Shown here one piece after another: positions 39,692 to 50,623 of a DNA stretch of 64,000 nt (its first letter is position 1; the number at the start of each line of letters is the position of its first letter). The position numbers were made by a program, and so were the translations under genes. The notes below the pieces were generated by a model. The model did no database searches. It saw only the letters and a program-made list of their open reading frames with translations, and was not told where the DNA came from. The DNA is from Rhizodiscina lignyota (taxonomy: Eukaryota): NCBI GenBank assembly GCA_010015805.1, contig ML978124.1, positions 682,001 through 746,000 of the forward strand. The letters run 5' to 3'.

Positions 39692-40675
39692 TCAATTTTG
39701 GACATTGGTTATCAAGTCGTCATTGGTCGCCACCTGCCAGACAGCATCGACCAGTCCTTCATCATTATGTCGCATCCATCTCATGCCTCTTGTCCTGTAT
39801 GACTTCCCATCCGGCTGAACAGTGGAACCGTTACTCGCTTTGAATGGACTAGAAAATGTGCCTAGCCAGATGAATTCGATGGCCGTGAGGTGGCCTTCGG
39901 CAAGGATGTATTCATCATGCGCGAGCAAATCCGGGAACGATGTCTCGTATCTATCGAACAAAGCAAGCAACGCATCTCGGCCGTGCTTGGTGCCTTGATC
40001 TGTAAGCACTTGAACATCAGTGGTAGTGAGGGCGGCGTTCGACTTTGTCTTGCGAAGGTTGAAGTTCTTGTTGAACTGCGACGCTACGTTCTTGATCTTC
40101 TCTTGATATTCCTTCTCCGTTGGGGGAGTGCTGATGAGTTTGATATCCTGAAACTTGCCAACCTTCTGTTTCCCGGTTACCTGCAGCTGGAGAATGTCGT
40201 TCTCATTGACCGTGATCAGGCGATTGAGCAGGACATCCTCGTCAAAGAGCATAAACTCGCCGTTGAGTATCTCAATGGCGTTTCCTGATGGCGGTACACC
40301 ATTAAACTCGCCCGTCTGATGTCCCTGGAAGTAGTACAGTATCGCGGCTTTGTTCCCGTCGTTCACGTGGATATGATCGCTGATTTTGATGTCGGGAGCC
40401 CAAGAGTCAAAGCTATCCAATCCCTCTACAAAGGGTTTTCGACCAAGGCTGTCCACGTCATTCGCTGTCCAATCTATGGACACCGACGCCAGGGCACCAT
40501 TTGCCTTCCTACCTGTGTCTCTCTTGTTGAAGTTCATGTGGAAGGTGGCAGAGTTCTTGGCCAGCTGTTTCTCGTATGATGGCGAGAAAGGCGCGGTGCA
40601 AAGGAGAGGGGTTGAGGAGCATGATGCGGCAACGGCCGGTGAAACAAGGACGTTCAAGAGCGATTGTGGACGCAT
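39692..40675 (-). CDS. Putatively secreted tandem SnoaL/NTF2-like (ester cyclase-like) protein
   Basis: Signal-like N-terminus; two units with F/APD(I/L)...GH.TG.FNGVPPSG and SFPDL...GTFSSPF...PDGKSY. Confidence 0.7.
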   Translation of the reverse strand: MRPQSLLNVLVSPAVAASCSSTPLLCTAPFSPSYEKQLAKNSATFHMNFNKRDTGRKANGALASVSIDWTANDVDSLGRKPFVEGLDSFDSWAPDIKISDHIHVNDGNKAAILYYFQGHQTGEFNGVPPSGNAIEILNGEFMLFDEDVLLNRLITVNENDILQLQVTGKQKVGKFQDIKLISTPPTEKEYQEKIKNVASQFNKNFNLRKTKSNAALTTTDVQVLTDQGTKHGRDALLALFDRYETSFPDLLAHDEYILAEGHLTAIEFIWLGTFSSPFKASNGSTVQPDGKSYRTRGMRWMRHNDEGLVDAVWQVATNDDLITNVQN

Positions 40676-42961
40676 TGTCGATAAAAAAAAAATGGATATC
40701 AGAATGACTGGATTGGGTGACTGTCGTGCCGCGAACGCTCAAGAATGGATGAACGACAGTGAAGTCACTTTCGGCGCGCTCTGCTTCGTGAAACGATTAT
40801 TGGGTTGCCCTCCAATTTATATTGAAGTCCATCTTTGTCGAGACGCTCTTCCCATTGCTTTCATCGCGTATTCGCTGAACCGGGTGAAAGACTATTATCA
40901 TTTTATTGCTGTATGTCGATTCCTAAGCGTGCTCGTCGACTCCGGTGAAGCTTCCCTCCCGTTCATCGGCAGCATCGTATCGTCTAGCAAAGAAAGAATG
41001 ACGCTAAACACGAACTGGTGGAGCGGTTGAAGAAGGGTGAAAGGAATGCTGCCGTCAAAGGGTAGGAGGCTTAGTCACCGCCAACTGGCGCTTTAAAATG
41101 AAATGATTCCTAATTGTTGGGCCCCCTTCGAGATGCAAATCGAGATGGTGATCAACGAAAACAGATACTAGCAAGGAGTGGAATTGATGAATGGAAAGAC
41201 TAATATCAAATGATAAAAGAGACGATAGGAGGATGGAAAATTGGCATGATCATCTGTGACTAAGCTCACCGACTCCCGCCAATTTTGCTCCTGTTCACGA
41301 CCTGTAGAGCGCCACAAAGCCACCAGGTAATTATACTGAGATTTCTTCGCGTATCTAAGCTCATAGATAGTGAATCAATGTGCATCTTTCAAGGAGACTG
41401 GTCGCGAACTGTGCACAGCTGAGGCTGAGAACTTTGCAAAGGTGAACGCGATCTGATGAGAGTGGGTATTCAACACAGAAAAGCGGAAATCCTAACCACA
41501 GTGAGGGCATATCGGATATCCATCGGGCAGTGGCTTGAAGCAGCTCGCCTTGATGAGAGACGCTCAGGCCGTACATAGTCAGTAGTACCTTGGGCACACG
41601 ACATGATGACATACCCTGCGAGTTCGGATGACAAGACCGTACAACCTTGGAATTCATTTACAGAGACCTCGAAGAAATGCTCAATCATCATGCTGTGTTC
41701 ATTCAGACTTGCGAGCATTATACAAACGAGGGAAGGAGACGTTGCGAAGGAGGGTGGTGCGGAAGGCTGTGTGATCTCGCTGCAAGTTAATGGGCACATG
41801 ATCAGTGGCCAAAGAATGCGGAGAAGTGCTTGAAAAGGGAATCGCTCAAATGTACTCCGTAGTTGAGCACATTGTGAAGGGTGAAGAGTACTTTCAGCCG
41901 CATGCTTTGCTTGGTTCACCGTTCAATGGTCTTCGTCGTGGGCGCTGTGGCGCATGGCATATTCCAAAAGGAGCTTGAGCAGTTTACGATTATTTATGTG
42001 CTTTGGATGTTGGGTATCGCCTGGCCAATGCCGTTGCGTTACAGACGGCATTTTATCCATGCCCTGCGTCGATCTGGCGGGTTATGGGGGCCAGGGGAAG
42101 GCTTAGCAACTTAAATCTAGGTACCCCGGACCCGTCATTGGGTGCCGATCACCCCCTATCCGTATACTTTCCTCAAGACAGCTCCCTAGTGCTCAATGCC
42201 ATTCGCACCTACAACCTTGACTTGCCAAGTAAGTACCTGAACCTCACAATACTGCTTGGTTGATTTTTACGATGATGACCGCTAGGCATTCTCCAGTTAC
42301 GGAGGGTGTGGCCGTACTCGCAAAGGGATGGATGGCTGCACTCGAAGGCTACCTACAGAGTGCCGAATCAGATCCACCTTCCATTGCACGGAACTCTGGC
42401 TCCAGAATTCTATCTTTGTACTTTTCTGATGATCTCACTGTTTCTCCTCGTATCCCGTGTCACTTTGTAAAGAGTAAAAGGTTCAATCCTATGGGACGCA
42501 AACTAGGAATCTATGGCGCTGGAATGTCCTGTTGGGCCATTTCCGCTCACCTCGCCGAGACTTCTCACCACTTCTCGTATTTGGTATCACATTAACCAAC
42601 TCAACAACTGGATGCCCCAAAGACATGCAAATTGGATGAGTAAGATTCAGCTGCAGGTACCCGACCCAGAGCGAGCTGAGAAGTAAAGATCAATGCTTGA
42701 GGTGGAGTAGCGAGCTGCTATTGGACTTGCCTACCATCCAAGCTTGCTATCTGGCTTCGTACGAGTAACTTCGCCTTCAGTATGCGAGGCCGAAAGGGCT
42801 CTAGAGTTATGCTACCTCGAGTATATAAAGTGGTCAAGATTCGTACTTTCTGCTCGACATCAGCGACAACAGCGACAACAGCAGTCTGACAATTCATCAT
42901 CTCACGGAGCAACAAGTCCATTCTTTTATTCAAGTTCACTTCTTCAAGTTCTCCAGCAGCA

Positions 42962-43487
42962 ATGGCCAAGTACGCTTTCACCGCTCTCTTCACTCTCTTC
43001 GCCGCTCAGGCTCTCGCCGCCCCGTCGGCCAACCCAATTGAAAAGCGCACCCCCGGCGGTGTAAGTCTCAAACAGATGCTTCATCTTTTCTTGCCATATT
43101 AAACGTACTTTCCAGATCTATATCTGCACGGATATCAACTGGTCTGGCGAGTGCGGCTACAAAGTCCAGCCTCTCAACACTTGCATTCACCTCGATGACC
43201 CCTGGTACCACACCATCTCATCCTTTGGCCCTGACCAGGGTACTTCTTGCCAGATGTACAGGTACGTAGACGCAACCATGAACCACAATACGCATCATGG
43301 CTGACACAGCTGTTAGTGACAAGAATTGCAACTTCCCCATTGGCTCCGGCATTGGCTATCCGGGAGTGGCCGATATGGTAAGTCAAAATCGCCACACCAC
43401 CAAAAGTTTCTAGGATATTTTACTAACAGATTCCAGACCAAGGACGGATTGAACGACCAAGTCGGTGCCTTCAAGTGCCATACTTAA
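42962..43487 (+). CDS. Small secreted Cys-containing protein, beta/gamma-crystallin-like, with Kex2 propeptide; three introns
   Basis: MAKYAFTALFTLFAAQALAAPSANPIEKR-TPGG|IYICTDINWSGECG..NTCIHLDDPWYHTISSFGPDQGTSCQMY|SDKNC..YPGVADM|TKDGLNDQVGAFKCHT. Not captured by the ORF track. Confidence 0.8.
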
Positions 43488-43655
43488 GGCAATAGACTTC
43501 CGAGTATGCTCGGATAGTTTACTGGGGCGTCTGAGAGAGATTTCCCTGGGGTTTCTCACAAACTTTGGCATTTTGCCAACTTCTGTTGCTCCTATTATTA
43601 GATAGTGTTTACATTGAATACCATGTCACTCGTTCAATCATACAACGAATCCACA

Positions 43656-44200
43656 TTATATAATTTTAAGATTCGTCGGGTCGTTGCCTGCTAGTAAAAG
43701 GGATCTGCGGTCCCATTGTAACGGTTCGCCTGAGTTGAAGGTATCAGTCCGACCGTCTGTCTCCACATGATTCGACATGTAATCTGCTCCAATAAAAGCG
43801 TTGGGCTTATTCCGACCACGGCAGTTCAGGGAAAGGAAAAGGTATCGACAAATGAGTAGATCTTCCAACTTGATCATTGGCCATATGTACGATTCGCGAT
43901 CTCGTCCCAGACATCTCTCACATATAGCTTTCGTAGCGATTCTTTTGTCCTGTATGCTAAAATGTCCGGGTGATGTGACACGGACGTTGACGGCCATGCA
44001 GTGAGCAGCATTTCTGCGCTGGCCTTTTGTTTTCTCCGACCATCGCTTCCGTATGACGCTTTCGTGTCTTTCCATGATACTGTTCAGTAAAGTCTAATCG
44101 TTGATGATATTCGTCTACCTGGAGCGCGCTTCTGAACGAATTTTCTCAGGTGGAACACGCGGTTGAACGCGTTCTTCGTGGCAACACATTTTGATTCGTT
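43656..44200 (-). pseudogene. Remnant of a fungal hypothetical-protein family
   Basis: MERHESVIRKRWSEKTKGQRR...RESYIWPMIKLEDL...LNCRGRNKPNAF, with frameshifts and early termination. Confidence 0.5.
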
Positions 44201-45293
44201 TGTGCAATTCAATCGAATGTTTGGAAAAAAAATACTCGGAGCGCTGCTCATATCAGGTGTACAACTTCATCAACTCGTTAACCACATCTTGACTCTCGTC
44301 TATGTCTACCGATTGTCTGCTGACGAACGACAAATGCATACACCAATCAGATATCTAGACAAAGACGAAACGAGGTGAAGATGAGAGAATGTGAGGAAGC
44401 ACCAAGCTTCGATTAATGTATTCAAACCACCGGCCAGCCCCTGAGAACACACCGCCAAATATAATGCCTTGGAATCAAATACCTGCTTCCGCAATCTCTT
44501 ACAACCGCAACAGCGTAAAATTAACCATGACAGAACCCCTCATGTCAAATGATGCTAAGTTCTAAGGCTGGACAACTCGTCTGGTTGTCGAACAATGACG
44601 AAAACGGAGGTTTCTCGAGTTTCGAATGGCGATCTCGAACAGGTCGTGAACGCGTACCTCAAGGATCGGCCCGATCCTCTCACCAAGCACCCAGCTTCTT
44701 AATCTTAAGTCGGCCCGAAAACGCGTCGTCTTTTGAACTCAAATACTACCTACCTCTTCCTACGGTATTGCCACAATCAATCGTAATGCGACATGAGCAA
44801 CTTCGTATCTATTCGACATCGACGTAGCCTTGAATCTTCAGCACTAAAATCCACTCTAATGCGGATTGGTCTTTTGAACCTGGTCCCCACGCCCTCAACA
44901 TGCGGGCTTTAATTCCGGGTTTCAGAGCAAAAGATGGTCATCTCATGCTTCCATCTGGAATGAGCCTTCTGATCTGCTATGTATTCCTACATGTCATTCG
45001 GAATACGGCAACTCACATCAATCGTGTAGACGAGCGCTATTCTCGTCTCCTCAGATATTTAGAAATGAAAAACTTGAGAGCGGTTCTATTTCGTTCTGTT
45101 GCGCGTGTATCTCAATCGATCATCAATCCTTTCATTTGTCCAATGCTAACTTCCGAACTAGCTAACTCTGAATCTCTTTGATTGACACACAGGCTATCCA
45201 AATCCAATTCGGCCGTGTCGACTTGTGTTGAACAATTCAACATTTGACGGACATCTCGCAATCAATCAAGACTATTTAACAGAAGCGCTTACT

Positions 45294-45731
45294 TCACATC
45301 TCTTTTCTCTGAGGGATGCTGATAAGCTCAGCTGGCTGTCTCTTCTCGGAAGGGTTTTGGTAGAGCTCTCGCGGGTCCCTCTTCTCTGATGGGTTTTGGT
45401 AGAGCTCCCCCGGGTCTCTCTTCTCGGAAGGGTTCTGGTAGAGCTCTCCCGCATCTCTCTTCTCAGAAGGGTTTTGGTAGAGCTCTCCCGGGTCTCGCTT
45501 CTCAGAGGGATTTTGGTAGAGCTCTCCTGCGTTCCTCTTTTCAGAGGGGTTTTGGTAGAGTTCTGCTGGCATAGCATCAGGAACCCGAACAGCCAAACCT
45601 ATATGCTAATTAGTGGTAGGAAACAAGCGGTGGACGAAATATATCTTACCTGGACTTGCTGGAAGAGCAGCTGCCATTGCGACCGCGAGAAAGGCGCTTC
45701 CGGCCAAGATTTCAAGAAGAGGAAGCTGCAT
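45294..45731 (-). CDS. Kex2-processed repeat peptide precursor (dikaritin-type RiPP precursor candidate); intron 45599-45649
   Basis: Signal peptide MQLPLLEILAGSAFLAVAMAAALP followed by six 13-aa units [N/D][A/P][G/R]ELYQNPSE-KR (39-bp DNA repeat). Confidence 0.88.
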
Positions 45732-46532
45732 TTTGGCTTGTCTTGCGAATTAGAGAAGACAATGTTTCTTTGGCGATGTTTCTTGGTATTCCTCCCCGTC
45801 GCTTTGCGCATTTGTTCCTTTATATACATCCATTCATACAGTTTCGCGCGAGTCTGAGCCGGAGTCACTGCAATTTGCAATAGCAATGCCGGTGCATGTC
45901 ACCAAATTCACCCGTCCTTATCAGTCTTACGTCCGGTACAGTCTTTGCATATTCAACATCACCTTCCGGTTCTTTCGAATAATTTGCCCATCCTCAACCA
46001 ACATGAGGCAACTGCTATGTAGAATGGGGCGGCCCGTGCCGAGCAGTATGTACCTTGTCACCTTACTAATACTAGCGCCTTCTTAAATCTGTCGTACTGT
46101 CGTATCCTCGCATCGTGGAATTATACTGGAATCTCCTCTTTAACAGGACAAGGCGCGATAAAAGTGGTCCATTGTGCTCGTCGCGGAAGGCGCAAGCCTC
46201 GTGTCATTGCGTCAATGCTACGATTGCAACCCTCACCATCTCCGTTTGAACTCTGTGAATTTTATCTACCTCCCAATTTCGGAATTAATGCGCTGCGTTA
46301 CCAACCACTGCAAGATAAGGGAAGGAAACGAAACCGCAATAATTCCCACAAATGATCGACGGTTAGATGCGGTATTATGCAGTGTTTGCCCGCTTCCTTC
46401 TACCGCTTCGGGGAGAGAATAAATGCATTTCTTGTCCATACGGTCCATCATCGATTGCCGAAAGCTGTCTCATCATTTCTTCCTCCAGCGCTGTTCCGTT
46501 GTCTTTCTCATGATTTCGTCTGTCAGTCCAAG

Positions 46533-47494
46533 ATGATTTCGTTCTCTAAACTTCAGGAAAGGCTGCGTCCAAGCAGTCAGTATCTGCGAATTGAAGAAGG
46601 AGACAATGAGGAGCTGAAGATTCAGACCTCTCCTGAGCCTTCTCAAACCCGCACAACCTGTTACCGACGTAGCTTTCTCCTGTCAGGCCTTCTCAATGTC
46701 ATACTCGCTGGGGCTTGTCTCTCTCTGAGCCTTCGAAGCTGGAGCTGGCACGACAACGGAGTAACAGAGCCCAAGGATACTTCCTTTGCTTCCTCGGGAT
46801 TTTACTGTAAGTGGGATGCGCTGATAACGTTGCGAGTAAGTAACAGTTCATAGCTCCATTGACCGACAGAGTCGATCTCACGCCCAGGTTAACCACTCTT
46901 AACGGCACGTTTCTTGACGAACATGATCCAGAAAATCCTCTTCGCCTGCTTCCCGGCGAGAAGGCAGACAGCGCATGGAAGGCTGTATCAGAAATCCAGT
47001 ATATCACTGTCTCGCATTCCGAAGTCATCAAGCTCGGCAGAGACCCCGCTGCACTGGTCCGCGCTCCAGAAGAATGGGGATTCGGCTCTGACAGATACAT
47101 CGCCATGATGGATCTCACGCATCAGCTGCACTGTATCAACTACCTCCGGAGGGCCGCATTTCCGGACTACTACAAGCGAGACATGTACAGGAAGCCCGAA
47201 TTCTATGAGCAGCATACCATGCATTGCGTGTACATGCTGTACCAGAATGCGATGTGTGCAGCGGGAACTGAGGTGATCACGTATAATTGGCTTGAAGGAC
47301 AACAGTTCCCCGTTCCGGACTTTTCGATTAACAAGATGTGCAGGAGTGGTGATGCATTGCTGGAGTATGAGAGGGAGAACATGGTAGAGGACTTGATCGA
47401 GCGAAGGAGCAAGATGACGAGACCGGAAGACGCGGTTGTCTTGCCTGTACCAAAGAAGTTGAAGGCGTGGCTGGAATGGCTCGAAACAGCTTGA
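46533..47494 (+). CDS. UstYa-like / DUF3328 oxidase; intron 46807-46853
   Basis: N-terminal transmembrane segment, YSP motif, two HxxHC motifs (HQLHCINYLRR; HTMHCVYMLYQNAMC), W...PDFS...CR tail. Confidence 0.93.
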
Positions 47495-48510: not shown

Positions 48511-49845
48511 TCAATGGGCCTGTTTCGATATGAAGTCTTTCAAGAACTTTGTGCCTTCCTTCTTGATCATCGGCATAGCGTAGGTAGCGAATGCAGTAGC
48601 CGCCGTAGCCTGCCAATCTGGGCCGCCCCTCTTCCTGTGTCTATCCCCCCTATCCCTGTCGTCATAGTCATCCCTATACCTGTCTCTCCTGTCTCTGCTT
48701 CCCCTTCGGCCGCCGTATGCTCCTCCGCCATATGAATCGCGTCGTGGATCTCGCTCGTCCGGATAGAAGGGAGGCGGCCGATTGTATCCCCGCGAGTGCC
48801 CACCATCAGAGTAGTAATCATCGTATCGCGGGGCAGGCCGTCGTCGGCCATCGCGATCTGAGCGGTACCCTCTGTCTCGGGGATCGTAGCCATCAGGTTC
48901 TTCGTATCTTGGGCGACGTCTGGGGTCTCGAGGGTCGCCACGGTCACGATCGCCATCACGATCACGACGTGGGTCACGGTGAGAAACATTCCGCCGAGGG
49001 GGTTGTCTGTAGTCATCGTCGTCGTCGTCTTCATAGTTGTACGGTGGGGCAGGCGCTCGTGCCCGAGGCTCCCGATTGGATGCACTGCGGCGTAAGCGCG
49101 GATCTGGTCCCGGAGCAAGATAATCTTCTCCTCCACGGCGGCGAGGATCCACAGGTTCGTTGCCGTATTGCACGGGCGGTGCTCGCGTGCGAATAGGCAT
49201 TTGGCGGGGCTCGACATCCCGGGGGTCACCATCACGTTCGCGCGCTCTGGGCTCAACATCTCGGGGGTCACCACCACGGTCCCGTGGTCTGCGCTCGACA
49301 TCTCGGGGATCACCATCACGGTCCCGCGGTCTGCGCCGCGGTTCTTCGTCAGGACCGGGACCAGGGCCAGGAGGAGGAGGACCTTCTCCGCCCCTCCGTC
49401 GGGGACGTGGTTCATCAGGAGGGCCAGTGCGCTTCAGTGTCTCTCCTTCGTCGCTCTCGTAGCCATCCCGCTTCTCTCTGAAGCTTCGGTGGGCTTGGGT
49501 GTTCTTGCGTTCCAGATCGTGTCTGCTGGCCATGTCTCGATCTATTCTGCTAGCCTCAGAGCCTATCGGCGGGCGTCGGATAGGTATGTATCCGCCGTTC
49601 TCGTCGTCAGAGGAGCGCAGGCGGACCTGAGAGTCACGACGGTCTGCTCGTGGGCGCTGAGCGCGTTCGCTCGGGTCTACGAGTATGGACTTCCGGCGCG
49701 GGCGATCGCCTCGTTGAGGTGGCGCTGTATAATAGTCGTCAGAGCGGTCCCGAGGATCAACAGCGCGAGGGCGCTCACGGAATTCCCGAGAGGACACGTC
49801 GTCGTAAAGCCTAGGATCGTTTTCGTGGTCGCTGGAGTAGTCCAT
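48511..49845 (-). CDS. Arg/Asp/Pro-rich low-complexity hypothetical protein
   Basis: Long open frame with RD/PR repeats (3x GDPRDVE) and a more ordered C-terminus (YAMPMIKKEGTKFL). Confidence 0.7.
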   Translation of the reverse strand: MDYSSDHENDPRLYDDVSSREFRERPRAVDPRDRSDDYYTAPPQRGDRPRRKSILVDPSERAQRPRADRRDSQVRLRSSDDENGGYIPIRRPPIGSEASRIDRDMASRHDLERKNTQAHRSFREKRDGYESDEGETLKRTGPPDEPRPRRRGGEGPPPPGPGPGPDEEPRRRPRDRDGDPRDVERRPRDRGGDPRDVEPRARERDGDPRDVEPRQMPIRTRAPPVQYGNEPVDPRRRGGEDYLAPGPDPRLRRSASNREPRARAPAPPYNYEDDDDDDYRQPPRRNVSHRDPRRDRDGDRDRGDPRDPRRRPRYEEPDGYDPRDRGYRSDRDGRRRPAPRYDDYYSDGGHSRGYNRPPPFYPDERDPRRDSYGGGAYGGRRGSRDRRDRYRDDYDDRDRGDRHRKRGGPDWQATAATAFATYAMPMIKKEGTKFLKDFISKQAH

Positions 49846-50623
49846 TGTCAGTAGGCTGAAGTGAAGGTTTGTCGGGGCACATGCGACGTTGACGTGGTGT
49901 GGGGGCAAGCGGCATGCGGGTGGTGTGACAGAAGTGTGGGGGGACGAACCGACGCCATTGATCGATGCTTCCACGGTCAGACATGACTCGGAGGGATAGA
50001 AGTAGGAGGTAATAGTAAGAGAAGCGCAAGGAGAGAGGGCAGTAGAGGGATATAAGAGGAGAGGAGTGGGCGCCCTCCCCGAGCTGAGCGGCCGCCGGTG
50101 AGCAGGCCTTGCCGTGGCTGATGTGCTGTCTCGTTACAGCTCTTTTGACGCCTGCACGAGGACGTCAGGTCACAAGGATCCCGGTGAAAAGTTGTACCAC
50201 TCCCTGCTCCATACAACAGAGACAGCACCTCCCAGGTCTCCTCAAGGTCCGTTTCATCACCGTGAAATTCCGTCAAGAATATGCTACGTTACACCCCCGT
50301 TGTCACCAATTCGATCCAGATTTCAAGAAAGATTCAATGTCACTGCGATTCACATGCTTATTTGATCTTGGACAGGCAAGAAATGAGTCGGACTTGAAAG
50401 AGTTGGTTTTTGTAGAGGCCTACGTGGAGGCTAGTCCCACGTTTGATTCCATTTCATTCCGTTTGGACCATCATCCCAGTAGGCTCGCCCAGCCGCCTTG
50501 TAGTTCAGTCAAGCAAATTCAGAGAGAAAGCAAACTCCATGACCCGTCATCATCAGTCGTCAATGTCACCTCCCGGCATCCCATCATGAGAGGTGCCATG
50601 AGTAGAGCAGCTTTCGTTGCTGT

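Follow-up and report, generated by a model that had tools for sequence, protein, structure and literature searches.

A candidate two-gene RiPP cassette in Rhizodiscina lignyota pairing an ELYQNPSE-repeat precursor with a lone UstYa-family oxidase

Background

Does a divergent pair of genes in the Dothideomycete Rhizodiscina lignyota, a wood saprobe, one encoding a secreted precursor with six copies of the peptide ELYQNPSE and the other an oxidase of the UstYa/DUF3328 family, constitute a pathway for a peptide synthesized ribosomally and modified post-translationally (RiPP)? The pair occupies positions 45294 to 47494 of a 64,000-nucleotide stretch of contig ML978124.1 (assembly GCA_010015805.1, positions 682,001 to 746,000 of the forward strand), which we term the window and whose numbering is used throughout. 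An earlier note, made from the letters of the window alone, had described the pair as a minimal dikaritin-type locus with an unfamiliar core. If the pair is active, it would represent about the smallest possible fungal RiPP pathway, with one precursor and one copper oxidase. As the core is unlike those of the known dikaritins, it would also offer a convenient system for studying what a lone UstYa protein recognizes and which bond it makes, in a family now known to be copper-dependent.

We establish below the structures of the two genes, their family membership, selection on the encoded peptide and conservation of the pair. On this basis we consider it reasonably probable (about 0.6) that the locus is a two-gene RiPP cassette of the kind that joins a Kex2-processed repeat protein (KEP) to a UstYa protein (ust-RiPS or dikaritin-like), with the UstYa protein modifying the core.

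Results and discussion

The repeat precursor and selection on its core peptide

The precursor gene lies on the minus strand (45731..45294), has two exons and is predicted to give a spliced product of 128 aa. Its parts are:

45650..45731, minus strand: exon 1, with the ATG and the signal peptide, ending in phase 1 just past the hydrophobic region and splicing in frame
45599..45649, minus strand: intron of 51 nt, GT..AG (GTAAGA...TATAG), phase 1, a predicted splice
45294..45598, minus strand: exon 2, coding for a short pro-region and six ELYQNPSE-KR units and closed by a degenerate seventh unit and the stop codon
45339..45572, minus strand: array of six units of 39 nt (13 codons), in each of which ELYQNPSEKR comes after a spacer of three residues

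Residues 5-26 make up the hydrophobic core of the signal peptide, which was called from hydropathy and by inspection (11-residue Kyte-Doolittle windows there exceed 1.6 and peak at 2.48 over residues 13-23), and the N-terminal region also contains a small-residue A-x-A site ahead of a Pro-rich stretch. Left unspliced, exon 1 reaches a stop after 41 codons, so that the signal peptide and the repeats are united only in the spliced form. Tandem Repeats Finder delimits the array at 45339..45564, with a period of 39, 5.8 copies, 85% matches and a score of 312. The decapeptide ELYQNPSEKR is identical in all six units, each core having a single, invariant Tyr, and the degenerate seventh unit, ELISIPQRKEM, forms the end of the protein. 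Amino acid variation within the units is limited to the three spacer residues, which read MPA, NAG, DPG, DAG, DPG and DPR in the successive copies. The protein has six KR sites, spaced 13 residues apart with 11 residues between them, and one RK site. The Methods passage of Umemura 2020 defines a KEP by a signal peptide and at least three tandem repeats of at least 8 aa between KR, KK, RK or RR sites, with no repeat longer than 100 aa, and the product of this gene has all of these features.

A 39-nt repeat opens several reading frames on both strands, and the variation among the copies bears on which of these is used. Seven of the ten core codon columns vary among the six copies, requiring at least 10 changes, all of which are synonymous (0 non-synonymous). 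Of the 90 single-base changes that the core consensus allows, only 17 are synonymous, and under a simple unconstrained model the chance of such an all-synonymous pattern is about 6e-8. For the entire 13-codon unit, spacer included, the ratio of non-synonymous to synonymous variation (pN/pS) is 0.13. Of the several frames that the repeat leaves open, this restriction of core variation to synonymous changes marks out that of ELYQNPSEKR, and it shows that purifying selection acts on the peptide in that frame, and not on the DNA repeat.

The UstYa-family oxidase

The second gene is transcribed divergently from the precursor on the plus strand (46533..46806 joined to 46854..47494), with 801 bp between the two start codons, and encodes a spliced product of 304 aa. 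The intergenic region and the parts of the gene are:

45732..46532, between the divergent genes: shared intergenic region of 801 bp
46533..46806, plus strand: exon 1, with an N-terminal region without a Pfam match followed by a single membrane helix at about residues 47-67 (46671..46733)
46807..46853, plus strand: intron of 47 nt, phase 1
46854..47494, plus strand: exon 2, with the PF11807 match and the stop; the domain is placed in the lumen by analogy with the protein CctR
47120..47134, plus strand: first HxxHC motif, HQLHC, residues 181-185, invariant in 9 of 9 aligned relatives
47213..47227, plus strand: second HxxHC motif, HTMHC, residues 212-216, in which H212, M214, H215 and C216 show no variation among the 9 aligned relatives

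The intergenic region presumably acts as a bidirectional promoter. Removal of the intron reproduces letter for letter a deposited hypothetical protein of R. lignyota, NA57DRAFT_54530 (P0001), a species whose genome features in the 101-Dothideomycetes paper. An alternative acceptor at 46872, which would give a product of 298 aa, was rejected because the acceptor at 46854 reproduces the deposited protein and fits the relatives. The product is recognized by the Pfam profile PF11807 (UstYa) with an E-value of 7.6e-38 and 131 bits against a cut-off of 25, over profile positions 66-220 of 220, and its two motifs are spaced as HxxHC(x)26HxxHC. It has one strongly hydrophobic stretch, residues 47-67, preceded by R-R (Kyte-Doolittle 19-residue maximum of 2.03 at residue 49), and the four Cys beyond this helix (185, 216, 226 and 254) are invariant in all nine aligned relatives. 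Among the nine relatives that we found, one on a 922-nt contig is closest, at 74% identity; those that come next, Coleophoma cylindrospora BP6252_00195 among them, reach about 50%. In the ESM Atlas the protein matched UstYa clusters, with a feature score of 0.96 and a structure TM of 0.70. A profile search of the PDB recovered no solved relative, its sole match being meaningless (E 0.66). An AlphaFold2 model built from the 9-sequence alignment is of low confidence (pLDDT 49.5), with a helix at residues 40-74 and both HxxHC motifs in helices. A complex prediction with two UstYa domains (the part past the membrane helix) and three precursor repeats speaks neither for nor against an interaction (score 0.08, mark 0.34).

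These observations bear out what the earlier note had read at this locus, namely a signal-peptide precursor with six ELYQNPSE-KR repeats, at the coordinates listed above, transcribed divergently at a distance of about 800 bp from a DUF3328 protein that has both HxxHC motifs and proves to be full-length. The note had further assigned the locus to the RiPP class defined by such a precursor and a UstYa/DUF3328 oxidase. This assignment is well supported, the precursor being a KEP by definition and the DUF3328 gene lying within the 10 kb of a KEP gene that section 7 of Umemura 2020 takes as the mark of the dikaritin-type (ust-RiPS) pathways.

A biochemically characterized reference for the oxidase is the DUF3328 protein CctR. 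The relevant passages of Huang 2025 (PMC12435403) describe a disulfide-linked dimer of a protein that runs from a cytosolic, disordered N-terminus through one membrane helix to a helical domain on the lumen side. Its binuclear copper centre is built by the HxxHC(x)nHxxHC motif and depends on O2 and electrons. CctR is a hydroxylase, and the same passages implicate the DUF3328 family also in halogenation and isomerisation (Huang 2025). The sequence features of the window protein match this published description, and by analogy its N-terminus is presumed to be cytosolic and disordered and its catalytic domain would face the lumen; copper, dimerization and activity likewise would carry over only by analogy.

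A second copy of the cassette

A scan of metagenomes with the alignment of UstYa proteins recovered one relative among 69 pattern-matching stretches, on contig Ga0247778_1000604 (hereafter L001), which is full-length and 42% identical; with the single UstYa protein as query the scan gave no match. Upstream of this UstYa gene lies a divergent gene for a signal-peptide protein, with 915 bp between the start codons:

4781-5079 of L001, minus strand: precursor with a signal peptide and two repeats

Its repeats read AELYGCASNT-KR-DIFGRCPEA, with PV-KR-EPEP between them, and differ from each other in 11 of 21 codons, all synonymously and none non-synonymously. The intron of this precursor gene, of 53 nt (or 47 nt), is in phase 1 and lies in the same place as that of the window precursor, with G-L at the exon junction in both, and the intron of the UstYa gene is identical in position and phase in the two loci. 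L001 and the window thus have in common the divergent arrangement of the pair, the placement and phase of the introns in either gene, and an (A/G)-E-L-Y core start. They differ in that the L001 precursor has two repeats and a longer unit with two KR sites and two Cys, and in their flanks, which at L001 encode a cytochrome P450, a DUF829 protein, a sulphur-transport protein and a major facilitator superfamily transporter. In a comparison of the window with L001 nothing outside the UstYa gene matched, and in the intergenic regions the shared 9- to 12-mers were not above shuffled controls (3 against a mean of 4.9 at k=9, and 0 at k>=10). Short length and divergence keep the two precursors themselves from significant similarity, and the case for their homology draws on their position, orientation, intron and (A/G)-E-L-Y core start.

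As the pair is kept at L001 amid different flanks, the two genes appear to travel together while their surroundings differ, and this comparison provides the best evidence here in support of their working together. The suggestion of the earlier note that this may be a two-gene system gains support from the recurrence of the pair as a unit in an unrelated context, and the class assignment is strengthened by it. With regard to the L001 product itself, the two Cys of each repeat unit are split by a KR site (AELYGCASNT / DIFGRCPEA), and the two halves might stay disulfide-linked after cleavage by Kex2.

Relatives of the precursor and the standing of its core

A word-indexed search of a 5.8-billion-cluster protein collection with the window precursor gave 1628 candidates, none of them at E <=0.01, and the same search with the L001 precursor gave three candidates and no homologue. 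An ESM Atlas search with the window precursor returned no usable match. In an exhaustive HMMER scan of 1.84 billion representatives the precursor did not recover itself, and its 92-aa unspliced form is not on record either. The precursor thus appears to be unannotated, because it is absent from collections that hold its neighbour from the same genome, the UstYa protein. The case illustrates how surveys of KEPs that depend on annotation can pass over genes of this sort.

The HMMER scan gave 41 matches at E <=0.001, of which we inspected 13. The best match was a protein of 5739 aa (P0010), and those ranked second to fourth were set aside as unrelated repeat proteins with somatomedin/hemopexin, Pcf11 repeat and DUF3300 matches in Pfam. 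The closest relative among the 13, and a convincing one, was a hypothetical protein of Agyrium rufum, MMC25_001942 (P0023; BLASTP E 1e-17). In its C-terminal part, units of 13 residues that read xP-A-E-M-A-L-Y-P-N-E-K-R come after a stretch resembling a signal peptide. This protein shares with the window precursor the 13-residue period, an E near the unit start, an L-Y pair and the E-KR end, but its Tyr lies two positions later in the unit and about 200 unrelated N-terminal residues are fused to it. Within the deposited model (329 aa) the KEP has, near residue 198, a Met and a signal-peptide-like stretch of its own, and the N-terminal fusion is probably a gene-model error. Another protein (P0027) repeats ALYQNP-RK units and is counted as a possible relative.

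The three related precursors, from the window, L001 and A. rufum, have in common an E near the start of the core and an L-Y pair. Two positions past the Tyr stands an Asn in the precursors of the window (L-Y-Q-N) and A. rufum (L-Y-P-N) and in the possible relative with ALYQNP units; L001 has a Cys there (L-Y-G-C). As for the core being unfamiliar, as the earlier note had it, we came across it neither in the protein collections nor in paper text: the core motif strings have no occurrence in the full-text paper library searched, and YQNP, LYQN, ELYQ and QNPSE are absent from the text of Umemura 2020. The passages of the three supplement files of that paper, which do not carry repeat sequences and hence are no test of the core, contain neither Rhizodiscina nor YQNPSE or LYQNP.

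Comparison with known systems

Pfam scans for accessory genes covered 69 open frames of at least 110 aa across the whole window, together with 50 of the 77 frames of at least 65 aa in the 40.5-52.4 kb region (about 5 kb on either side of the pair), the 27 omitted frames being those that overlap either of the two genes or the long frame 48514-50133, or that had already been scanned. No tyrosinase, methyltransferase, transporter, peptidase or cytochrome P450 was found in these frames, though genes with very short exons could escape such scans. The statement of the earlier note that no tyrosinase, methyltransferase or transporter is adjacent therefore holds for the frames scanned.

In its composition the pair resembles the asperipin-like single-oxidase type. 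Like the asperipin-2a system of Aspergillus flavus (AprA and AprY), it combines a single UstYa-family protein with a repeat precursor that has a signal peptide, Kex2 sites and a core containing Tyr, and no tyrosinase was found here. The asperipin-2a core, FYYTGY, is unrelated, with three Tyr where ELYQNPSE has one, and its cluster includes a reductase and a transporter, neither of which was found at the window locus. Ustiloxin (UstA, UstYa/UstYb) and phomopsin (PhomA, PhomY) similarly depend on a Kex2-processed multi-core precursor, a two-HxxHC oxidase and a core Tyr. However, according to Umemura 2020, their clusters have 2 and 5 DUF3328 genes, respectively, along with a tyrosinase, methyltransferases and peptidases, as against one DUF3328 gene and none of the others found in the window. 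Furthermore, their core Tyr is N-terminal, whereas that of the window peptide is third in the invariant core and fourth in the predicted nonapeptide. The locus does not fit the ustiloxin/phomopsin subtype, which has several DUF3328 genes and a tyrosinase, as the scanned frames gave no tyrosinase or methyltransferase Pfam match. The epichloecyclin cluster (gigA, gigB, gigC, kexB) is likewise described as a small cluster around a repeat precursor with the involvement of a DUF3328 member, but it has its own Kex2-like protease gene and one further gene, neither of which was found at the window, and its cores are unrelated.

How unusual is such a pair? Passages of Umemura 2020 report that 1758 of 7878 KEP genes have a DUF3328 gene nearby, with a peak at the adjacent gene, and that 2560 KEPs have no homologue, while section 7 of that paper gives the asperipin-2a pathway just one DUF3328 protein. 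In view of these figures, a unique core beside a lone UstYa gene is the usual case and not the exception, and the rarity that the earlier note attached to the locus was overstated. Thus, the pair is one more candidate of a populous class, with a core sequence not found elsewhere in the searches made. Such pairs number in the thousands and as a rule have cores of their own; the case adds a candidate and not a principle. Its added interest lies in the unrecorded precursor, the portable two-gene unit and the group of precursors that share the (A/G)-E...L-Y core start.

A proposed pathway and its alternatives

Taking the locus as a KEP-plus-UstYa cassette, the following scheme can be proposed, in which expression, the order of processing, the residue modified and the ring enter by inference. 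The 128-aa precursor would enter the endoplasmic reticulum via its signal peptide and meet the UstYa protein in the secretory pathway. The latter would be a type II membrane-anchored oxidase with a lumen-facing catalytic domain and, by analogy with CctR, a dimeric, binuclear-copper, O2-dependent enzyme that oxidatively modifies each core. Kex2 would then cut after each KR, a Kex1-type carboxypeptidase would strip the K and R, and a Ste13-type dipeptidyl aminopeptidase would remove the X-Pro/X-Ala spacer (DP, DA, NA), the Kex1 and Ste13 steps being the trimming steps of yeast alpha-factor maturation. The residues preceding the first core, R-VP-DA-MP, i.e. an Arg and then three X-Pro/X-Ala dipeptides, fit the same dipeptide-trimming logic. 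Each precursor would yield the modified nonapeptide (G/A/R)ELYQNPSE in as many as six copies. A review passage notes that Kex2 processing of such precursors resembles alpha-factor maturation. The likeliest reaction, in our guess, would be a cross-link from the conserved Leu-Tyr to a residue about two positions downstream, comparable to the ether that ustiloxin and phomopsin have between Tyr(i) and Ile(i+2). We prefer such a Tyr(i) to (i+2) link because the ring of these compounds, as described in a review passage, joins Tyr to the residue two positions on.

Several points weigh against the cassette reading or against parts of it. Taken alone, the sequence similarity of the L001 precursor to that of the window falls short of significance (BLASTP E 0.083), and the pairing is conserved in just one other locus, L001, which is also the only one where gene context was examined. 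The cores of the two loci diverge after ELY, into QNPSE in the window and the Cys-containing GCASNT in L001, and therefore the chemistry need not be the same in both. The splice that joins signal peptide and repeats is a prediction made from the DNA. A search for sequencing runs over the locus gave one of DNA and none of RNA. The DNA run gives one 107,238-nt contig with the introns included; this contig covers 44800-48200 with no differences and no joints and is possibly the source assembly. The core is acidic and hydrophilic, in contrast to the known dikaritin cores. A ring, moreover, is not assured, because DUF3328 enzymes also hydroxylate, halogenate and isomerise.

This last point leads to a variant of the cassette in which no ring is made and the UstYa protein hydroxylates or otherwise oxidises a C-H bond, for example of Leu, Asn or Pro, to give a linear oxidised peptide. 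The precedent of CctR as a hydroxylase and the halogenation and isomerisation ascribed to its family in the passages cited (Huang 2025, PMC12435403) favour this variant, as does the change of the residue two past the Tyr from Asn in the window to Cys in L001. Nevertheless, we regard it as somewhat unlikely, since the UstYa-family proteins of the RiPP cases described in the passages at hand (ustiloxin, phomopsin, asperipin and victorin) cyclise, the L-Y pair is present in all three related precursors, and Tyr is enriched in DUF3328-linked KEPs, where by the figures of one passage of Umemura 2020 it occurs in 65.6% of the repeated sequences as against 38.2% in the others. It is distinctly unlikely that the precursor is an ordinary KEP giving unmodified secreted peptides and that the adjoining UstYa protein acts on something else or on nothing. 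By a passage of Umemura 2020, 78% of KEPs have no DUF3328 neighbour and many of these are thought to be linear, and the Pfam scans found no further tailoring, transport or peptidase gene nearby. Yet the divergent pair is retained in L001 with all flanking genes different. The same paper counts 9399 DUF3328 genes in 1461 strains, i.e. about 6 per genome, and with some 10,000 genes assumed per genome chance adjacency to a given gene would, by rough inference, come to something like 0.1%.

We find it very improbable that the repeat frame is unexpressed or belongs to a decaying gene. The absence of the precursor from protein collections that hold its same-genome neighbour would be in line with it, but the variation among the six cores is only synonymous, the start, splice signals and stop are intact, L001 has a counterpart that shares the intron, and a relative is predicted in Agyrium rufum. 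Least credible of all is a mating pheromone gene of the alpha-factor kind, since pheromones of filamentous ascomycetes are Trp/Cys/Gly-Gln-rich and the core here is acidic. The cores also vary widely between related loci, and the immediate neighbour is a DUF3328 gene, which almost all pheromone KEPs, with three exceptions, lack in the account given in Umemura 2020. These points stand against a layout of signal peptide, KR sites and X-Ala/X-Pro spacers that is indeed that of the yeast alpha-factor precursor, a resemblance also noted in a review passage.

Within the preferred reading of a KEP-plus-UstYa cassette, the precursor comparisons invite an extension that we offer as speculation and hold to be unlikely: the window, L001 and A. 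rufum KEPs would form a separate dikaritin-like RiPP subfamily on a portable two-gene cassette, in which a single UstYa protein reads (A/G)-E-...-L-Y and links the Tyr to the (i+2) residue, Asn in the window and A. rufum or Cys in L001. To our knowledge, no fungal RiPP has been described in which Tyr is bridged through its side chain to Asn or Cys. Were this subfamily real, the product of the window locus would be an unusually acidic cyclic nonapeptide. The (A/G)-E...L-Y core start may also mark what this clade of UstYa proteins recognizes.

The genomic neighbourhood

Across the whole window 13 of the 69 scanned frames have a Pfam match, mostly to housekeeping families, including Sin1, PRCC, an NF-Y-like histone fold, a non-specific endonuclease, Cwc15, RNase PH, Noc3/CBF, Nip7, SET and ribosomal L14; an amidohydrolase is found at the left end. 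One of the 50 nearby frames has a match, to rhaM. It belongs to a two-exon gene for an L-rhamnose-mutarotase-like protein (PF05336; 47805-48292, plus strand) that begins 310 bp downstream of the UstYa stop, and it is probably not part of the system because it has no counterpart beside the L001 cassette.

On the other side, some 1.8 kb past the precursor gene's 3' end, lies a gene for a small secreted protein of roughly 120 aa (42963-43486, plus strand), in which three short introns are predicted. The protein has six Cys, a signal peptide and a KR site that comes after about 29 residues. Its exon 2 has no Pfam match, and the gene is not present in L001; its product may be another Kex2-processed secreted peptide. 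The approximately 1.8 kb between this gene and the precursor (43500-45290) contains no frame with a Pfam match and may be intergenic or home to unrecognised small genes. A long frame on the minus strand (48511-49845; 444 aa from the first ATG), without a Pfam match, has an extreme content of Arg, Asp and Pro, repeats DPRD and RDR motifs and has a C-terminus that is short and hydrophobic. Apart from the pair, just one frame in the window hints at secondary metabolism, a 348-aa open frame at 39695-40738 on the minus strand, 4.5 kb from the precursor, in which a SnoaL-like polyketide-cyclase domain is matched in two stretches.

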